Shown one piece after another: positions 55,273 to 64,000 of a stretch of DNA of 64,000 bases (position 1 is the stretch's first letter; the number at the start of each line of letters is the position of its first letter). The notes under the pieces were generated by a model, which made no database searches, was not told where the DNA came from, and saw only the letters and a list, made by a program, of their open reading frames with translations. The stretch comes from an uncultured Actinomycetota bacterium (GTDB taxonomy: Bacteria; Actinomycetota; Actinomycetes; Propionibacteriales; Nocardioidaceae). A program made the translations under genes and the position numbers. The stretch covers positions 222,950 through 286,949 of the forward strand of contig CAWCGH010000003.1 in the NCBI GenBank assembly GCA_963795115.1, read 5' to 3'.

Positions 55273-57005
<1,733 letters not shown>

Positions 57006-57077: not shown

Positions 57078-58712
57078 CTACTCGACGTCGACGGTGAGCG
57101 TGGTGACCGGGTTGTCGAACTCGTCGATCCGCAGGCTGACCTGGACCTTCCACTCCCCCGGCTTCGGGAAGCTGACCGTCGCCAGGAAGGTGCCGGTGCC
57201 CGTCGGCGTGACCGGCACGGTACCCAGGTCGACCCCGGTGGTGCGGAGCGACACCTCCGGTCGCTCACCCAGGTCGACGGGCTCACCGCTCAGGTCCTGT
57301 ACCTGCACCAGCAGCTGTCGCTGACGTCCGGGCGTCCTGTCGAGCACCGCCAGCACCTGCAGGTCACCGACGACCGCCCGGGCGACGTCGGACGCCGGTG
57401 CCGCAGGGACCGCCGTCGGCTCGGCGCGCGGCGGTTGCTCGACAAGGAAGCCGGTGACACCCAGCAGGCCGACCAACAGGGCGGCTTCGAGGAGGACCAC
57501 CCGGCGGACGGCGAACGTCGCGCGCCTCCTGGTCTCGTGGGGACCGTCGCTGACGCTCGGGAGCACACGGAAGCGGTTGAACGCCGCGACCGCGCCGACG
57601 GCTGCCGCGATCCCGACCTTCACCAGCAGCAATCGCCCGTACGTGGTGTCGACCAGGCCGCTCCAAGAGCCCAGGATCCGCCAGCCCAGCAGTACACCCG
57701 CGACCGCGAGCACGCCGAGCAGGCCGGCGGCGGCGGTTGAGAATCGGCTCAGTACGAGCGCACCGTCGCGCTCGCGGCCGGCGAGCGACGGGAGGACAAC
57801 GGCCAACCCCACCAGGCCGCCGAGCCAGACCGCCCCGGCACTGAGGTGCAGGGCGTCGGTCAGGACGAGGAGCGACACCGGTTCGTAGGCGCGGGTATGG
57901 CCGACCAGAGCCGGGGACCAGACCGCCAGCCCTGCGCCGATATCGCCCGCCAGCGAAGGCGTCCGGCGGCCCGCCATGACGACCGCCAGGCCGAGGCCCA
58001 TCACCTGGAGAGCGAAAACGGTGAGGTCGTCCCCGATCAGCTGCAGGTCGAAGGACGCCGACTCGAGCAGGCCACCGGCACCGGCTCCGCGCTGATAGGC
58101 CCCGGAGACGGCCACCCCGATCGCGGCGACGGCCACCGCGGCGATGGCCGAGCCCCGTTGGAACAGCAGCAGGCGCCTTCGCACGGCGTCCTGAAGGCGG
58201 ACGCCGCGCGAGATCCAGGACAGGAAGATGGTGAGGCCGCCTGCCAGCAACAGGGCCAGGTAGGACAGCGCCTGGACGACGCTGGCCACGTCCCGCATGG
58301 CGGAGTCGTCCGTGACCGGAGAGTCACGCGGAGGTACGACGCTCTCGCTCGGCGCCCCGACGTGGAAGGTCAGGGAACCGGCGATCGGGTGACCGTCGGA
58401 GGACACGACCCGCCAGGCGACGACGTAGGTGCCGTCGCCAAGATCGTCGGGCAGGTCGGCGGTCACCACGACGTCGCGCGCGGACGCGTCGACGTCGACC
58501 GGCTCGCCGGAGGCGTCGTACGCCTGGATCGAGTCGCCGGCCAGAGACACCGGCTCGTTGAAGGTGAAGGTGACCATGTCCGGCGCCTCGGGCACGACCG
58601 CGCCCTCCGCCGGGTCGGTCGAGACCAGGGAGGCGTGCGCCGACGCCGGCGCGCCCGCCGAGCCCACGAGGAGCCCGGCGAGCAGCACCGACGCCAGCAC
58701 ACGCCTGACCAT
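57078..58712 (-). CDS. Copper resistance CopC-CopD fusion (YcnJ-like)
   Basis: AHASLVSTDPAEGA, WRVVSSDGHPI, GHTRA, HLSAGAVWLGG, YGRLLLVK. Confidence 0.9.
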   Translation of the reverse strand: MVRRVLASVLLAGLLVGSAGAPASAHASLVSTDPAEGAVVPEAPDMVTFTFNEPVSLAGDSIQAYDASGEPVDVDASARDVVVTADLPDDLGDGTYVVAWRVVSSDGHPIAGSLTFHVGAPSESVVPPRDSPVTDDSAMRDVASVVQALSYLALLLAGGLTIFLSWISRGVRLQDAVRRRLLLFQRGSAIAAVAVAAIGVAVSGAYQRGAGAGGLLESASFDLQLIGDDLTVFALQVMGLGLAVVMAGRRTPSLAGDIGAGLAVWSPALVGHTRAYEPVSLLVLTDALHLSAGAVWLGGLVGLAVVLPSLAGRERDGALVLSRFSTAAAGLLGVLAVAGVLLGWRILGSWSGLVDTTYGRLLLVKVGIAAAVGAVAAFNRFRVLPSVSDGPHETRRRATFAVRRVVLLEAALLVGLLGVTGFLVEQPPRAEPTAVPAAPASDVARAVVGDLQVLAVLDRTPGRQRQLLVQVQDLSGEPVDLGERPEVSLRTTGVDLGTVPVTPTGTGTFLATVSFPKPGEWKVQVSLRIDEFDNPVTTLTVDVE

Positions 58713-58717
58713 CGCGG

Positions 58718-59416
58718 CTACGCCCTCCGGCTCCGAACCAGCGCGATCCCTCCGATGACGATCCCGGCGATGCCGGTGCCGAGGCCGGCGAGGGCGAGGC
58801 CGTTGCCGTCCTCGTCCGCCTCGCCATCCGTTGACGCTGCGGGCGCCTCGTCCGATTCCTCGGCGTCGTGGCCGTGGCCGTCACCCTCGGCCTCGGTGAT
58901 CGTCACCAGCGGCGCCGGGTGCTCGAGCTCCTCGGCGTCCTGACCCTCCTCGGCGACCTCGGTCCAGCCGGTCTCGCCTTCCGTGCAGGTCTGGACGATC
59001 GGGAACGCGAAGGTCTCGCCGACCGCGTCGGGCAGCTGGACCGACAGCTCGAAGGTGTCGCGGTCCGGGTCCGGCAGTGGCTCCTTGGCGGTGTAGACGA
59101 CGACGGCCTCGCGCTCGGTGATCTCGTTGCCGTGGGCGTCCTCGATCGGCTCCGCGAGCGGCTCGCTCCGGACCTCGAGGTCCCAGTAGGGGTTGCGGGT
59201 CGCGGTGACCTGCGGGATCTCCTCGGGCATGGAGATCGCGACCTTGGTGGTGGCCGAGCCGTCGCAGCCGTGCGGCACGCTCACGGTGAGGACGGCGTAC
59301 GAGCCCGCCGCCGTGGTGTTGGGCGAGATCGTGACGTGCGCGGACGCCGGGGCGACGGCGAGGGCCAGTGCTCCCGCCGCGCCGGCGGCGGGCAGGACGA
59401 TACGTCGGATGTGCAT
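58718..59416 (-). CDS. YcnI-family (DUF1775) copper-binding membrane protein
   Basis: AHVTI, VPHGCD, FPIVQTC...W, C-terminal TM anchor. Confidence 0.9.
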   Translation of the reverse strand: MHIRRIVLPAAGAAGALALAVAPASAHVTISPNTTAAGSYAVLTVSVPHGCDGSATTKVAISMPEEIPQVTATRNPYWDLEVRSEPLAEPIEDAHGNEITEREAVVVYTAKEPLPDPDRDTFELSVQLPDAVGETFAFPIVQTCTEGETGWTEVAEEGQDAEELEHPAPLVTITEAEGDGHGHDAEESDEAPAASTDGEADEDGNGLALAGLGTGIAGIVIGGIALVRSRRA

Positions 59417-59495
59417 GGTTGTTCCTTGTCTGAAGATTGGTGGATGGCAGGCAGGTGCGGCCACCGATCAGCCAGGAACAGTCCGGGAGGTTCGG

Positions 59496-60378: not shown

Positions 60379-62238
60379 TCAGCCGACCGCTGCCTCGGCC
60401 TGTTCGACCAGCGGCTTCACGACGTCGACCGCGCGGATCCTGCCGCTGATCGCCCCGGTCCCACCCGGGTCGAACTCGACTGCCGTTGGGATGCCGATGA
60501 GGAGCCCGGCGTTGTCGATCGCCATGCCGCCGGAGTTGCCGGGCGTGATCCGCGCTTCGGTGTCGAACTCCCAGTGCGACCCGAGGTCGGGATCGGTGAG
60601 CACGGTCGAGATGGCGCCGGTCGTGACCGTGATCGAATCAACCGATCCGGACAGTGCCGGGAAGCCGAGCACCGTGACGTCGTCGCCGGCTCGCAGCGCG
60701 GCCGACTCCCCGATCGAGACGGCGGGGAGGTCGAGCCCGCCGTCGAGCGCAGAACCATCCGCGTTGGCGTAGATCTGGATGACCGCAGCGTCGAGGACAC
60801 CGTCGGCTGCGACGACGCGCGCGCGGTACTCCGGGTCCGAGGTGGTGTCGGTCGAACCGTCAGTGGTGGAGATGAGGAGGAACTCGGGATTGGCGATCGC
60901 GGCCGCCGGCCCGTACTGGTCGACGATGCCCGGCGACTCGGGGGCCGCGACGTGCGCATTGGTCAGGATCAGCCCGTCCGACCTGATGATCGAGCCGGAG
61001 CCGCCGTACACGAACTGCTCGTCGGGGTTCTCCAGCGAGTGGCTCTCGGCAATGATCCGCACCGTCGCAGCCTTCGCGGCGTCCAGCTCCTCGTCGGTGA
61101 CCTCGTCGGGCGAGCCGGACCCGTCGCTCGAGTCGGTCTCGTCGATGGTCGGCTCCGACGTCGCGTCGGCAGCGGTCGGATCGTCGTCACCGTCGTCGCG
61201 CCCCAGGAGTACCGCGACCGCGGCGATGCCCAGGATCAGGACGAGTACGCCGGCAGCGATGCCCGCGAACAACAGGTTGCGCCCAAGCCGACGGCGGGCG
61301 ATCCGCTTCTCCTCCTCGACGGCCGAGAGGATCGGCACCAGCGTGACCTCGGGGCCCGCGACCGGGTGGCCGAGCCGCAGCTCGGTGCGGTCGTCGAACT
61401 TCTTGGAGGTGATCCGGCGCCCGTCGAGGAAGGTGCCCTCGTTGGACTGGTTCGTGTAGGTCCAGGCGCCGGGGACGCTGGCCACGGTGCCGTGCATGCG
61501 GGACGCGGCCGGGTCCTTGAGCACGACCGTGCAGTCCGGCAGCCGGCCGATGGTGATCTGGGCCGGGTGGCGGAACCGGTGCTCCTGACCTTCCGCGACG
61601 AGCAGCAGGTCAGGACCGGAGCGCACCGGCGGCGGCCCACCGGGGGTGGCTCCCCCGCCGGGCTGGGCGGCCAGCACCTGTGTCTGGTCGAGGCCGGCCG
61701 GGATCAGCTGCGGCGGCTGGGCGGGCGACGGGCGGGCGACCGGGCTGCCCGGGGGTGCGGGCGGAACCGGCCGCGACGGAGGGGCTGCGGGCGGCGGTGA
61801 GGGTGGCGGTGGGGGCGGCGGCGCGAAGCGCGAGTGCGCGGCCGGCCGCTTTCCCGGCGCGGGGGGAATCGTCGGCTCGTCGAGCGCGGGCGGTGGCGGC
61901 GGAGCCGGCGCGCGTACCGACGCCTGCACCTCCTCCGACGCCATCGAGGCCGGCGAGATGATCAGATCCGATCCGGTCGAGATCGGGCCGCAGCGGACCA
62001 GGGTCCTGCCCCTGATCGTGTGCTCGACGACGCGGACGCCGTTGACGTAGGTCCCGAACTGGCTGCCGGTGTCGACCAGCACCCACAACCCGTCCACCGG
62101 ACGGAGCTCGGCGTGCTGGCGGGAGACCGACCCGGCGGTGAGGACGATCTCCGCATCGATGGCGCGGCCGATCCTGATCACGGAGCTCCCCTCGAGGCGA
62201 AGGACGCGACCGTCCACCTCGACCACCAACGGCGACAT
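60379..62238 (-). CDS. FHA-Pro linker-FHA-TM-trypsin-like serine protease
   Basis: Two GR...SxxH...G FHA motifs; TM helix after RRRLGR; triad TNAHV / DAAVI / GNSGG. Confidence 0.85.
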   Translation of the reverse strand: MSPLVVEVDGRVLRLEGSSVIRIGRAIDAEIVLTAGSVSRQHAELRPVDGLWVLVDTGSQFGTYVNGVRVVEHTIRGRTLVRCGPISTGSDLIISPASMASEEVQASVRAPAPPPPPALDEPTIPPAPGKRPAAHSRFAPPPPPPPSPPPAAPPSRPVPPAPPGSPVARPSPAQPPQLIPAGLDQTQVLAAQPGGGATPGGPPPVRSGPDLLLVAEGQEHRFRHPAQITIGRLPDCTVVLKDPAASRMHGTVASVPGAWTYTNQSNEGTFLDGRRITSKKFDDRTELRLGHPVAGPEVTLVPILSAVEEEKRIARRRLGRNLLFAGIAAGVLVLILGIAAVAVLLGRDDGDDDPTAADATSEPTIDETDSSDGSGSPDEVTDEELDAAKAATVRIIAESHSLENPDEQFVYGGSGSIIRSDGLILTNAHVAAPESPGIVDQYGPAAAIANPEFLLISTTDGSTDTTSDPEYRARVVAADGVLDAAVIQIYANADGSALDGGLDLPAVSIGESAALRAGDDVTVLGFPALSGSVDSITVTTGAISTVLTDPDLGSHWEFDTEARITPGNSGGMAIDNAGLLIGIPTAVEFDPGGTGAISGRIRAVDVVKPLVEQAEAAVG

Positions 62239-62248
62239 GGGCATGAGC

Positions 62249-63577
62249 CTAGGCGGGTGCGCCGGGAGTGTCCGTGGCCGGACGCCGTACCTGGACAGTC
62301 GCGTTGCGGATCTGGATCCGCGCACCGGCGACCAGCTCGATGGTGCGGTCCGGCTCGAGCACGAAGCTCTGCCCGCCGGGGTAGGCAACGGGCCAGGGGA
62401 AGTCGGACGCGTTGTGGAGGCCCCACCGGTCGGGTACTTCGGGGTGCTGGCGGAGGTCACCCAGCACGACGGGGTGGTCCACTCCAGACGCCAGGTGATC
62501 GGACCGGATCGCCGCCTGCGGACCGACCGCGACGGTCCGTCGTCCGACCTGGAGGAGGTACGGCGGACGCACGAGGGTGCCGTCCTGCCAGCACACCGGG
62601 TCCGGCTCGCCACTGCTCCAGAAGTTGGTGGTGCCGCAGGTCGGGCACGCGAGCAGCCCGTCTCGCAGTCGGTCCATGGCCTTGATCCACTGGCCCTCGG
62701 TGACGCGCGCGCCGGGCTTGTTCATGCCGTCGACGAACGCCTGGACGAACAGGTCGCGGAGGAACTGCGGGTAGATCTCCCAGTACTGCTGGACAATCTC
62801 GGCCGGCCGGTTGTCGTCGTTGGTGGGGTGCATGCAGAACTGCGGCTCGGTGCCGAAGTGAGTCATCAGCCAGTAGGCGTCGCGCACCCCGGCGTCGGTC
62901 CGGTTGCCCTCCAGCGGGTGGCCGAGGAAGAGCGAGTAGAACAGCAGGACCGCGAGCGAATGCCGGTCGGTGTCGGTGTTGGGCAGCGTCCGGTACGTCG
63001 TGTCGCGGACCACCTCGGGCGCCATGAAGTACGGCGTCCCCAGCACCCGCCCGGTGCCGTTGTCGATCCCGACGTTGTCGTTGTCGCAGATCAGCACGTC
63101 GCCGCCGGCCGGGTCGAAGAACACGTTGCCGAAGGAGATGTCCCGGTAGCAGAGCCCACGCGCGTGCAGCCGCAGGAAGCTGTAGCTCAGCTGGCGGCAC
63201 AGCTCGATGATCGAGGAGAACGAGACGTCGAGCGGGTTGCCGTCGCGGTCGGCGTTGAGGAGGAGGTAGCTGAGCTCGAGGTAGCGCACGTCGCGCAGGT
63301 GCATCACGTAGCCGAAGCTCGGCTGGCTGGGGACCCGGGCCATGCTCAGCGGCCAGAGGAAGCGGCGGTGCGGGGAGCCGATCTCGACCAGCTGCTGCAT
63401 CTCCTGGTACTGCTCGGTCGTGGCGCTCTCAGGTTTGTACCACTTCAGCGCGAGGGGTTCGCCCGTGTCGCGACGTACCTCAAAGACGTAGCCCTGGCCG
63501 CCCTGGCCGAGCAGTGACGTCACCCGGGCTCGACCTAGTGGCCCGAGGTCGACCTCGACGCCCTCCGCCAGCACCAT
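62249..63577 (-). CDS. TerY-associated Ser/Thr-type protein kinase with Zn ribbon
   Basis: LGQGGQG, ALKWY, YRDISFGNVFFDP, ICDNDN, GTPYFMAPE, HPLEG, CPTC...CW. Confidence 0.85.
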   Translation of the reverse strand: MVLAEGVEVDLGPLGRARVTSLLGQGGQGYVFEVRRDTGEPLALKWYKPESATTEQYQEMQQLVEIGSPHRRFLWPLSMARVPSQPSFGYVMHLRDVRYLELSYLLLNADRDGNPLDVSFSSIIELCRQLSYSFLRLHARGLCYRDISFGNVFFDPAGGDVLICDNDNVGIDNGTGRVLGTPYFMAPEVVRDTTYRTLPNTDTDRHSLAVLLFYSLFLGHPLEGNRTDAGVRDAYWLMTHFGTEPQFCMHPTNDDNRPAEIVQQYWEIYPQFLRDLFVQAFVDGMNKPGARVTEGQWIKAMDRLRDGLLACPTCGTTNFWSSGEPDPVCWQDGTLVRPPYLLQVGRRTVAVGPQAAIRSDHLASGVDHPVVLGDLRQHPEVPDRWGLHNASDFPWPVAYPGGQSFVLEPDRTIELVAGARIQIRNATVQVRRPATDTPGAPA

Positions 63578-63698
63578 GGGTGTCGCCGACCTCCGTGCCT
63601 CTCGTTCCGCCGCGATCCCAACCAGATCAGGGTCCGTGTGTGACAATCTATAGCCTGAGCAGCGACAGCGGCGTCCAAACCCGGTATCAGGAGATGGC

Positions 63699-64000
63699 AT
63701 GAGTGACCGCTTGGGCGGCGCCTTGGCGCGCAAGCCCCTTCACTTCATTTTCGTGCTGGACGTGTCCGGCTCGATGATGCGTGGCGGCCGCATCCAGGCG
63801 CTCAACAACGCGATCTCCGAAGTGCTGCCGCACCTCAAGGACGAGGCGCGCGCCAACCCGCACGCCGAGATGCTGATCCGCGTCCTCGCATTCGCCAACG
63901 AACCGCGCTGGGTGATCGAGGAGCCGACGCCCGTCGACCAGATCCACTGGGAGCGTCTCGAGGCCGTGCCGCGCGGTTTCACCGAGCTCGGCAGCGCGCT
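63699..64000 (+). CDS. terY: TerY-family vWA domain protein (3' end beyond window edge)
   Basis: AGGAG RBS; KPLHFIFVLDVSGSM (MIDAS DxSxS), IQALNNAI...NPHA...IRVLAF...PTPV...TELGSAL. Confidence 0.82.
   Translation, partial: MSDRLGGALARKPLHFIFVLDVSGSMMRGGRIQALNNAISEVLPHLKDEARANPHAEMLIRVLAFANEPRWVIEEPTPVDQIHWERLEAVPRGFTELGSA

Follow-up and report, generated by a model that had tools for sequence, protein, structure and literature searches.

The window analysed here, a 64,000-nucleotide stretch of a high-GC (~70%) Nocardioides chromosome (G000, contig C3:222950-286949), appears to encode at its right-hand end a phospho-switch of the TerY-P type, with a Ser/Thr kinase, a TerY-like vWA protein and, just beyond the edge, a PP2C-like phosphatase. 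The kinase gene lies directly upstream of a gene for a membrane protein with two FHA domains, one transmembrane helix and an HtrA-like protease domain. On balance, we favour the reading that the switch is functionally coupled to this membrane protease via the FHA domains. The triad itself is known already, and the FHA-tethered protease output paired with it would be new. Sequence past the right edge was taken from L002, the continuation of the same locus. The features of the locus are given below.

60379..62244, minus strand: gene for the FHA-linker-FHA-transmembrane-HtrA-like protease protein (Pfam FHA twice, 2.2e-25; Trypsin_2, 1.5e-20; identical protein P0001)
62029..62181, minus strand: core of FHA domain 1 (residues 22-72), GR and SxxH conserved (Pfam, alignment)
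61669..61689, minus strand: DQTQVLA island in the Pro-rich linker (residues 186-192), candidate phospho-acceptor and FHA-docking motif (alignment)
61411..61557, minus strand: core of FHA domain 2 (residues 230-278; Pfam, alignment)
61201..61275, minus strand: single transmembrane helix (residues 324-348; read from the sequence, positive-inside rule)
60382..61002, minus strand: predicted extracytoplasmic S1C (HtrA/DegS/AlgW-like) protease domain, without PDZ (Pfam, alignment, database matches)
60949-60963, 60781-60795 and 60526-60540, minus strand: catalytic His in TNAHV, Asp in LDAAV and Ser in GNSGG, respectively (alignment)
62249..63577, minus strand: gene for the TerY-P-type Ser/Thr kinase, 442 amino acids (open reading frame, Pfam, homology)
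63014..63508, minus strand: kinase catalytic core with G-loop GQGGQG, ALK, YRDISFGN, ICDNDN and FMAPE (alignment; AlphaFold2 model, pLDDT 91.5, Foldseek protein-kinase matches)
62582..62647, minus strand: Zn-ribbon-like element CPTC...CWQD (alignment)
62279..62560, minus strand: C-terminal beta-sandwich of the kinase, FHA-like fold (AlphaFold2 model, pLDDT 87.7, Foldseek)
63578..63698, no strand: 121-bp spacer separating the divergent kinase and vWA genes (gene starts)
63699..64000, plus strand: 5' portion of the TerY-like vWA gene, which in full would reach 64397 (L002:4649-5347)
64394-65293 (L002:5344-6243), outside the window: PP2C gene (PF13672)

The open reading frame of the kinase spans 62249..63733 on the minus strand, and the open reading frame list and inspection of start codons point to ATG 63577 as the likely start. 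The protease gene begins on the same strand 4 nt past the kinase stop, at ATG 62244, and runs to 60379 (621 amino acids; public gene calls start at ATG 62238 and give 619). On the plus strand, the vWA gene begins with ATG 63699 and diverges from the kinase gene across the 121-bp spacer, in which no match to a sigma-70 consensus was found. It crosses the right edge and encodes 232 amino acids in full, and its stop is overlapped by 4 nt by the PP2C gene, which encodes 299 amino acids (PF13672 PP2C_2, 1.2e-29). An earlier reading of the window, made from the sequence only, had placed a Zn-ribbon kinase directly upstream of a protein with two FHA domains, a transmembrane helix and an intact trypsin-like domain, had put a divergent vWA gene 121 bp away and had forecast a PP2C gene just past the right edge; each element was found where it had been placed.

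By definition, TerY-P combines a TerY-like vWA protein and a PP2C-like enzyme with a Ser/Thr kinase that carries a zinc ribbon as a C-terminal fusion (PMC11090510). All three components are present, and architecture and homology together support assignment of the locus to this type. The kinase matches Pfam Pkinase at 6.6e-14, and a search with it found the kinase gene in 2188 enterobacterial (ter) plasmids at ~33% identity (E 5e-24). With the kinase of a Klebsiella ter plasmid it shares 33-34% identity (E 2e-31), the alignment running from the C-lobe via a helical extension into the Zn ribbon; the gene order on the one Klebsiella plasmid inspected is terW, vWA, TerD-family, vWA, TerY-C, PP2C and kinase. 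The vWA protein (VWA_2, 4.9e-9) aligns over its full length with the vWA protein of the ter plasmid (24% identity, E 4e-8), and the PP2C protein is homologous to PphC/YegK and retains the metal-binding Asp motifs. E. coli YegI, PphC and YegL align with the three proteins at 25-30% identity (kinase/YegI 25%, vWA/YegL 30%). Thus, the assignment to TerY-P made from the sequence alone is borne out by homology of all three proteins to ter-plasmid genes and to YegL/PphC/YegI. The catalytic K/D/N/D of the kinase, the metal-ion-dependent adhesion site (MIDAS) of the vWA protein and the metal-binding Asp residues of PP2C are kept across >100 relatives; the MIDAS motif, DxSxS..T..D, is kept in at least 95% of 123 sequences.

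The strings LCYRDISFGNVFF and VLICDNDNVG of the kinase are invariant in 25 homologues of 43-93% identity. The YRDISFGN and ICDNDN motifs within the catalytic core had been taken as TerY-linked, which did not stand, since the ter kinase of Klebsiella reads HSDLSYKN/IIDVDG at these positions and YegI reads GDVNQNS/LIDSDS. As judged by these alignments, they represent the catalytic and Mg loops in the form specific to this actinobacterial family and are not linked to TerY in themselves. The Zn ribbon of the window's clade, CPTC...CWQD, has three Cys and an Asp, and relatives at 76% identity or below carry the canonical CxxC...CxxC. The CWQD at 62582-62593, which replaces the second CxxC, is either a Cys3Asp site or part of a decaying ribbon. 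The suggestion that PP2C and ter genes be sought in the adjacent region was fruitful for PP2C only: no Pfam match to Ter-family genes (TerD/TerC/TerZ) was found among the genes within 19 kb. Such linkage is typical of the founding examples and is not required for the triad.

The last ~100 residues of the kinase, after the Zn ribbon, were modelled by AlphaFold2 with high confidence (pLDDT 87.7; whole protein, 91.5). When this tail was compared with the PDB using Foldseek, the first ~40 matches were all FHA domains, APLF, MDC1, PNKP and Rv0020c among them, with a TM-score of ~0.6 and a best E of 4e-3. At the sequence level, Pfam on 15 members and a profile search of PDB sequences were both negative for an FHA relationship, and hhalign of the tail against an FHA profile gave a probability of 1.7%. 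The phosphate-binding Ser position of canonical FHA domains is not conserved and is occupied by Arg. The tail was therefore rejected as a bona fide FHA domain, and, because the sequence methods were negative and this Ser is not conserved, only an FHA-like fold is claimed for the model. Kaur et al. (2020; PMC7159879) left the same region as an unnamed 'beta-strand-rich domain'.

The 621-residue product of the gene downstream of the kinase consists of FHA1, a Pro-rich linker of ~130 residues, FHA2, one transmembrane helix and Trypsin_2, in that order. The hydrophobic helix LLFAGIAAGVLVLILGIAAVAVLLG lies between KRIARRRLGR and DDGDDD; by the positive-inside rule, this basic N-side flank and acidic C-side flank indicate an N-in/C-out topology, in which the FHA domains are predicted to be cytoplasmic and the protease to lie outside. 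The protease domain groups with HtrA/DegQ/AlgW/DegS, and matches to DegQ/AlgW/HtrA1 were obtained at 1e-11 to 1e-6. No Pfam match to a PDZ domain was found in the protein, and the chain ends ~35 residues past the protease domain. In an alignment of 75 sequences, five distant ones included, the catalytic His, Asp and Ser were kept in at least 95%, as were the GR and SxxH of both FHA domains. The linker is hypervariable apart from an island, [DE]-x-T-Q-[VI]-L-A, in which T188 is invariant in 70/70 Nocardioides orthologues and L191, at pT+3, is present in 74 of the 75 sequences. Many bacterial FHA domains favour pT-x-x-(I/L/V). The linker T188 is thus proposed as a candidate kinase target and FHA docking site.

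Linkage of the protease gene to the kinase gene was surveyed in 78 genome loci, mostly from Nocardioides, with kinases of 56-97% identity. An intact FHA+protease open reading frame lies directly downstream of the kinase in 52 loci, and in eight more the contig ends just past an FHA piece at this place, so that the FHA-protease is linked to the kinase family in 60/78 loci. FHA+protease is found elsewhere within 10 kb of the kinase in three loci, and two loci were too short to tell the downstream content. Three loci (L025, L034 and L051) have an FHA remnant alone downstream of the kinase, and two Nocardioides loci (L028:10878-13385 and L061:11313-13259) have a frameshifted gene, with the FHA part and the protease part in different frames, by pseudogene formation or assembly error.

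The pairing is also kept in distant lineages despite rearrangement, namely in L079 (Acidimicrobiaceae), L080 (Microthrixaceae), L082 (G017, from another class), L083 (a divergent second system of the Nocardioides genome G421) and, from metagenomes, the contigs L094 and L099. These loci run vWA, PP2C, (unknown genes, a second vWA and an EssC-like FtsK ATPase) and FHA-FHA-transmembrane-protease, all divergent from the kinase. L080 and L083 further carry an EmbR-like Trans_reg_C-BTAD-FHA regulator. In one of the 78 loci, L077 (Sporichthyaceae), the slot after the kinase is filled by a gene for three FHA domains and an ABC transporter, which is the architecture of Rv1747. Retention in distant lineages and the exchange in L077 show that, in the subtype whose kinase diverges from vWA-PP2C, the partners are consistently membrane or regulatory proteins with FHA domains. 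A survey of kinase neighbourhoods for FHA-trypsin partners had been proposed with the sequence-only reading, together with the concern that the linkage might not be conserved; given the 60/78 loci and the distant lineages with other gene orders, this concern falls away.

Several of these loci bear on a different role, in which the FHA-protease would be a mycosin-like partner of a triad-regulated EssC/FtsK ATPase, i.e. an accessory of type VII-like secretion, the ATPase having become unlinked in Nocardioides. In L079 and L083, the FHA-protease gene comes right after a gene for an EssC-like three-ATPase FtsK protein, which is flanked by two vWA genes; L082 includes an EssC with two N-terminal FHA domains, and EssC is encoded in L086 and L090 as well. 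An association of TerY-P with FtsK-WXG100 has been published (PMC4978471; PMC11090510, section 10), and Esr signalling controls Esx in Actinomycetes (PMC13622651). However, the only EssC-like gene of the window's genome is on another contig (C5), the protease is found with no EssC nearby in L094, L080 and ~60 Nocardioides loci, and no WXG100 gene was identified. We consider this role unlikely.

The membrane protein could, alternatively, serve as the input of the triad, with the HtrA-like domain sensing envelope stress or peptides and the FHA domains recruiting or releasing the kinase. AlgW and DegS, both stress sensors, are among its closest relatives of solved structure. None of the kinase, vWA and PP2C proteins has a membrane segment, so that the protease protein, with the membrane protein U545 of the same block (see below), is their only link to the envelope, and the FHA-like domain of the kinase itself could read phospho-marks. 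This outside-in direction is nevertheless rather improbable, as the PDZ domain, the peptide-sensing element of DegS/AlgW, is absent, and the ABC transporter in the same slot of L077 and the FHA-bearing EssC of related loci look like effectors.

In the favoured reading, the switch would act outwards on the protease. Its parts would be a cytoplasmic vWA protein with MIDAS, PP2C, a soluble kinase that bears a Zn ribbon and ends in an FHA-like tail, and the FHA-linker-FHA membrane protease. The kinase, opposed by PP2C, would phosphorylate Thr residues, candidates being the invariant Thr of [DE]xTQ[VI]LA and the activation loop of the kinase. The FHA domains would bind those phosphothreonines within or between molecules, and a resulting shift in clustering or oligomeric state of the membrane protein would switch the protease on the outer face. 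Such a mechanism would follow the logic demonstrated by experiment for PknF/Rv1747. The topology, phospho-acceptor and direction of signalling in this scheme are what we infer, as would be any input signal, protease substrates and biological role. The reading is preferred because of the 4-nt spacing, the conserved linkage, the shuffling of gene order with the pairing kept, the exchange in the slot of L077, the conserved residues, the TQ[VI]L island, the homology of the triad and the precedents of Rv1747/PknF and Esr.

What the sequences show directly is which genes are present, that the catalytic and binding residues are intact, the operon structure, the homology to ter triads and the conserved linkage. 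Several points weigh against coupling of the switch to the protease. FHA1 (SQFGT) has not kept the canonical Asn of the beta6-beta7 loop, and the binding specificity is therefore uncertain. The triad occurs without the FHA-protease in 7/78 loci (L042, L060 and L066-L070). Outside the subtype with the divergent kinase gene, most relatives of the kinase are co-directional with their partners (vWA-PP2C-kinase or kinase-vWA-PP2C) and have no FHA-protease; they come from metagenomes of gut and soil and from plasmids of Prevotella and Methylomonas. The coupling is therefore a feature of the subtype, not a general property of TerY-P. Conversely, genome G475 has, on another contig (L167, C41:37000-56900), a gene for an FHA-FHA-transmembrane-protease (894-residue stop-to-stop open reading frame) with no triad gene within ~8-10 kb on either side. 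Co-transcription of kinase and protease is predicted from the 4-nt gap, and the sequence is compatible with information flow in either direction.

Species with the triad but no protease, and G475 with the protease but no triad, would also be expected if the two were neighbours by chance and functionally unrelated. We disfavour this explanation as highly improbable in view of the 4-nt spacing, the retention of the pair across classes despite rearrangement and the exclusively FHA-bearing nature of the partners beside a kinase/phosphatase pair. In G475, a gene for an FHA-FHA-ABC transporter (932-residue open reading frame) lies ~5 kb from the FHA-protease gene.

The kinase family is patchy, being present in 4/401 sampled Actinomycetota genomes and in 22/151 genomes from the window's GTDB genus; the latter count led us to reject a core locus shared by the whole genus. 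In Nocardioides, the block is ordered Na+/H+ exchanger, FHA468, U539, second kinase, U545, PP2C, vWA, kinase and FHA-protease. It is syntenic across species over the 56-97% range of kinase identity, and the Na+/H+ exchanger flank is present in most whole-block loci. The GC content of the locus is normal and no mobile-element genes were seen. Because of this synteny, normal GC content and lack of visible mobile-element genes, a clade-restricted accessory signalling system fits better than a hopping defence island, and a conflict-related role would still be compatible with it.

Patchiness would also be expected of an antiphage TerY-P system using the protease as an abortive-infection effector. 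Antiphage activity has been validated for one TerY-P variant (Gao 2020, cited in PMC11090510), and relatives of the kinase are found on plasmids adjoining nuclease-type genes. However, the kinase tail differs from the OB (oligonucleotide/oligosaccharide-binding) fold of that validated system (PMC11090510) in that it models as an FHA-like beta-sandwich, and an antiphage role is therefore not indicated. PADLOC models, proposed as a check with the sequence-only reading, did not call the locus: the vWA protein matched TerY marginally (5e-4, no significant stretch), PP2C gave no match, and the kinase matched generic kinase models only (mad6, PD-T4-6), with no system-specific match. No specific family for any member of the triad was found in NCBIfam and PADLOC. 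Synteny across Nocardioides with the Na+/H+ exchanger flank, the normal GC content and the lack of visible mobile-element genes also speak against defence, and an extracytoplasmic protease would be an odd effector against an intracellular phage. Defence is thus quite unlikely.

Four block genes lie past the right edge (window-equivalent 67030-71588) and belong, together with the triad, to a larger phospho-signalling block whose synteny is kept in most Nocardioides loci. The second kinase (L002:7980-8855, minus strand) is a stand-alone Hanks kinase of 291 residues. U545 (L002:6264-7901, minus strand) starts with a helical domain, followed by a Pro-rich stretch, a transmembrane helix and an extracellular domain, and U539 (L002:9003-10622, plus strand), of 539 residues, is very conserved (72-99% identity) and has two GxGxxG-like motifs and no Pfam family. 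In FHA468 (L002:11132-12538, plus strand), an N-terminal domain and a disordered region precede a Zn ribbon and an FHA domain, a layout similar to that of the EsrG-type outputs (PMC13622651). The Sporichthyaceae locus L077 also encodes U539 and a protein like FHA468 near the kinase. An apparent fusion of the second kinase and FHA468 in L080 was discounted, as the middle part is Arg-rich and looks out of frame; it is probably a frameshift or two genes.

The N-terminal domain of U545 (L002:7600-7901, minus strand), here termed NDOM, is a helical domain of ~100 residues with no Pfam match and ~9 paralogues in the genome. It is found at the N-terminus of some FHA-proteases, namely in L079, L083 (L083:2447-4813, minus strand) and L099, and on a Methylomonas plasmid (L168:12864-17415) four consecutive NDOM genes come right after kinase-vWA-PP2C. 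It looks like an adaptor domain associated with the triad. On a Prevotella plasmid (NZ_CP091789.1:30788-48047, L169), the genes are ordered TerY-C, kinase, vWA and PP2C, the kinase being a full-length relative at 30% identity. Past this triad are three hypothetical genes and genes for a formylglycine-generating-enzyme-family protein and a 3'-5' exonuclease, and ADP-ribosylglycohydrolase genes are upstream; this is another set of partners around the same triad. Within the window, a copper-handling pair, DUF1775/YcnI-like (8e-44) and a CopC-CopD fusion, is directly downstream of the module (57078-59464, minus strand) and is common only to its closest relatives. A secreted subtilase at 55273-56835 (minus strand; Inhibitor_I9 and Peptidase_S8, 520 residues, C-terminal extension) has no evident link to the module.

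TerY-P triads are widespread: ter plasmids, CoCoNuT systems and defence islands have them, as does E. coli (yegI/pphC/yegL), and none of them, to our knowledge, has a described substrate. The actinobacterial subtype encodes likely targets next door, each with phosphothreonine readers, and offers a single invariant Thr motif to mutate, which makes the substrate question directly testable and provides a concrete substrate hypothesis for a widespread phospho-switch of obscure mechanism. If the coupling is real, this would be the first case known to us of an HtrA-like extracytoplasmic protease under cytoplasmic Ser/Thr phosphorylation, and TerY-P would be tied to the emerging theme of kinase/FHA control of the envelope and type VII secretion in Actinobacteria. 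More tentatively, Actinomycetota may own an undescribed TerY-P subtype, with the kinase-Zn ribbon-FHA-like protein divergent from vWA-PP2C, that addresses interchangeable FHA-tethered effectors through phosphothreonine linker motifs, in parallel to Esr. The extracytoplasmic HtrA-like protease, the ABC transporter, the EssC secretion ATPase and the EmbR-like regulator would then be the effectors of a modular 'phospho-FHA bus', and cytoplasmic phosphorylation steering a protease across the membrane would be a new regulatory principle for HtrA-type enzymes.

The TerY-P triad is said to go back to Anantharaman, Iyer and Aravind in 2012, with E. coli YegL/PphC/YegI and the ter plasmids as examples. 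The locus shares with it three homologous proteins, and EssC/FtsK in related loci matches the published TerY-P/type VII secretion theme. It differs from the founding loci in having neither ter genes nor DNA-processing partners, and also in the divergence of the kinase from vWA-PP2C, the FHA-FHA-transmembrane-protease gene in the kinase operon, the FHA partner set and the FHA-like tail of the kinase. The protease had not been recognised in the sequence-only reading as a described output of TerY-P, and no FHA-FHA-transmembrane-HtrA-like protease was found as a TerY-P partner in the searchable texts, a scope outside which the 2012 primary paper falls.

An actinobacterial theme of kinase-Zn ribbon-beta-strand-rich domain with PP2C and vWA is given one sentence in section 29 of PMC7159879 (Kaur et al. 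2020), for GAP1-N2 neighbourhoods. The kinase family and triad are very probably the same as here, although a GAP1-N2 GTPase context was looked for among the locus neighbours and no GAP1/GTPase genes were found. PMC7159879 names neither an FHA-like fold nor an FHA-protease partner. A vWA-kinase-FHA-PP2C operon of Deinococcus has also been studied (bioRxiv 10.64898/2026.01.23.701218).

Esr is an actinobacterial vWA/MoxR-kinase-phosphatase pathway, established experimentally, that phosphorylates a Thr within the disordered part of an FHA output protein of variable architecture and controls Esx (PMC13622651, bioRxiv, September 2026). Both systems combine vWA and a kinase/phosphatase pair with FHA outputs in many domain configurations, and Esr is linked to Esx/EccC and occurs in Propionibacteriales. 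However, no Pfam domains for a MoxR AAA+ ATPase, the EsrA beta-propeller sensor or a transglutaminase were found in the 12 neighbouring genes scanned; the locus is therefore not Esr, although the logic is alike. The vWA protein here is also TerY-like and stand-alone, and a protease output is absent from the text of PMC13622651.

With the membrane-tethered serine proteases HtrA/DegS/AlgW (MEROPS S1C) and MarP, the protease protein shares the Trypsin_2 fold, the H-D-S triad, a membrane tether and the predicted extracytoplasmic site, and it differs from them in lacking PDZ and in carrying its regulatory domains, the two FHA domains, on what is predicted to be the cytoplasmic side. In the Rv1747/PknF system, a kinase regulates a membrane effector via an FHA-linker-FHA region with phospho-threonines in the linker (PMC3138270, PMC8339232). 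There, the effector is an ABC transporter and the kinase a receptor-type Hanks kinase, whereas here they are a predicted extracytoplasmic HtrA-like protease (Trypsin_2) and a soluble TerY-P-type kinase, to which dedicated vWA and PP2C proteins are added. In both, two FHA domains joined by a Thr-bearing disordered linker lie N-terminally on a membrane effector and the kinase gene is in the same operon, and a true Rv1747-type FHA-ABC transporter fills the same slot in L077.

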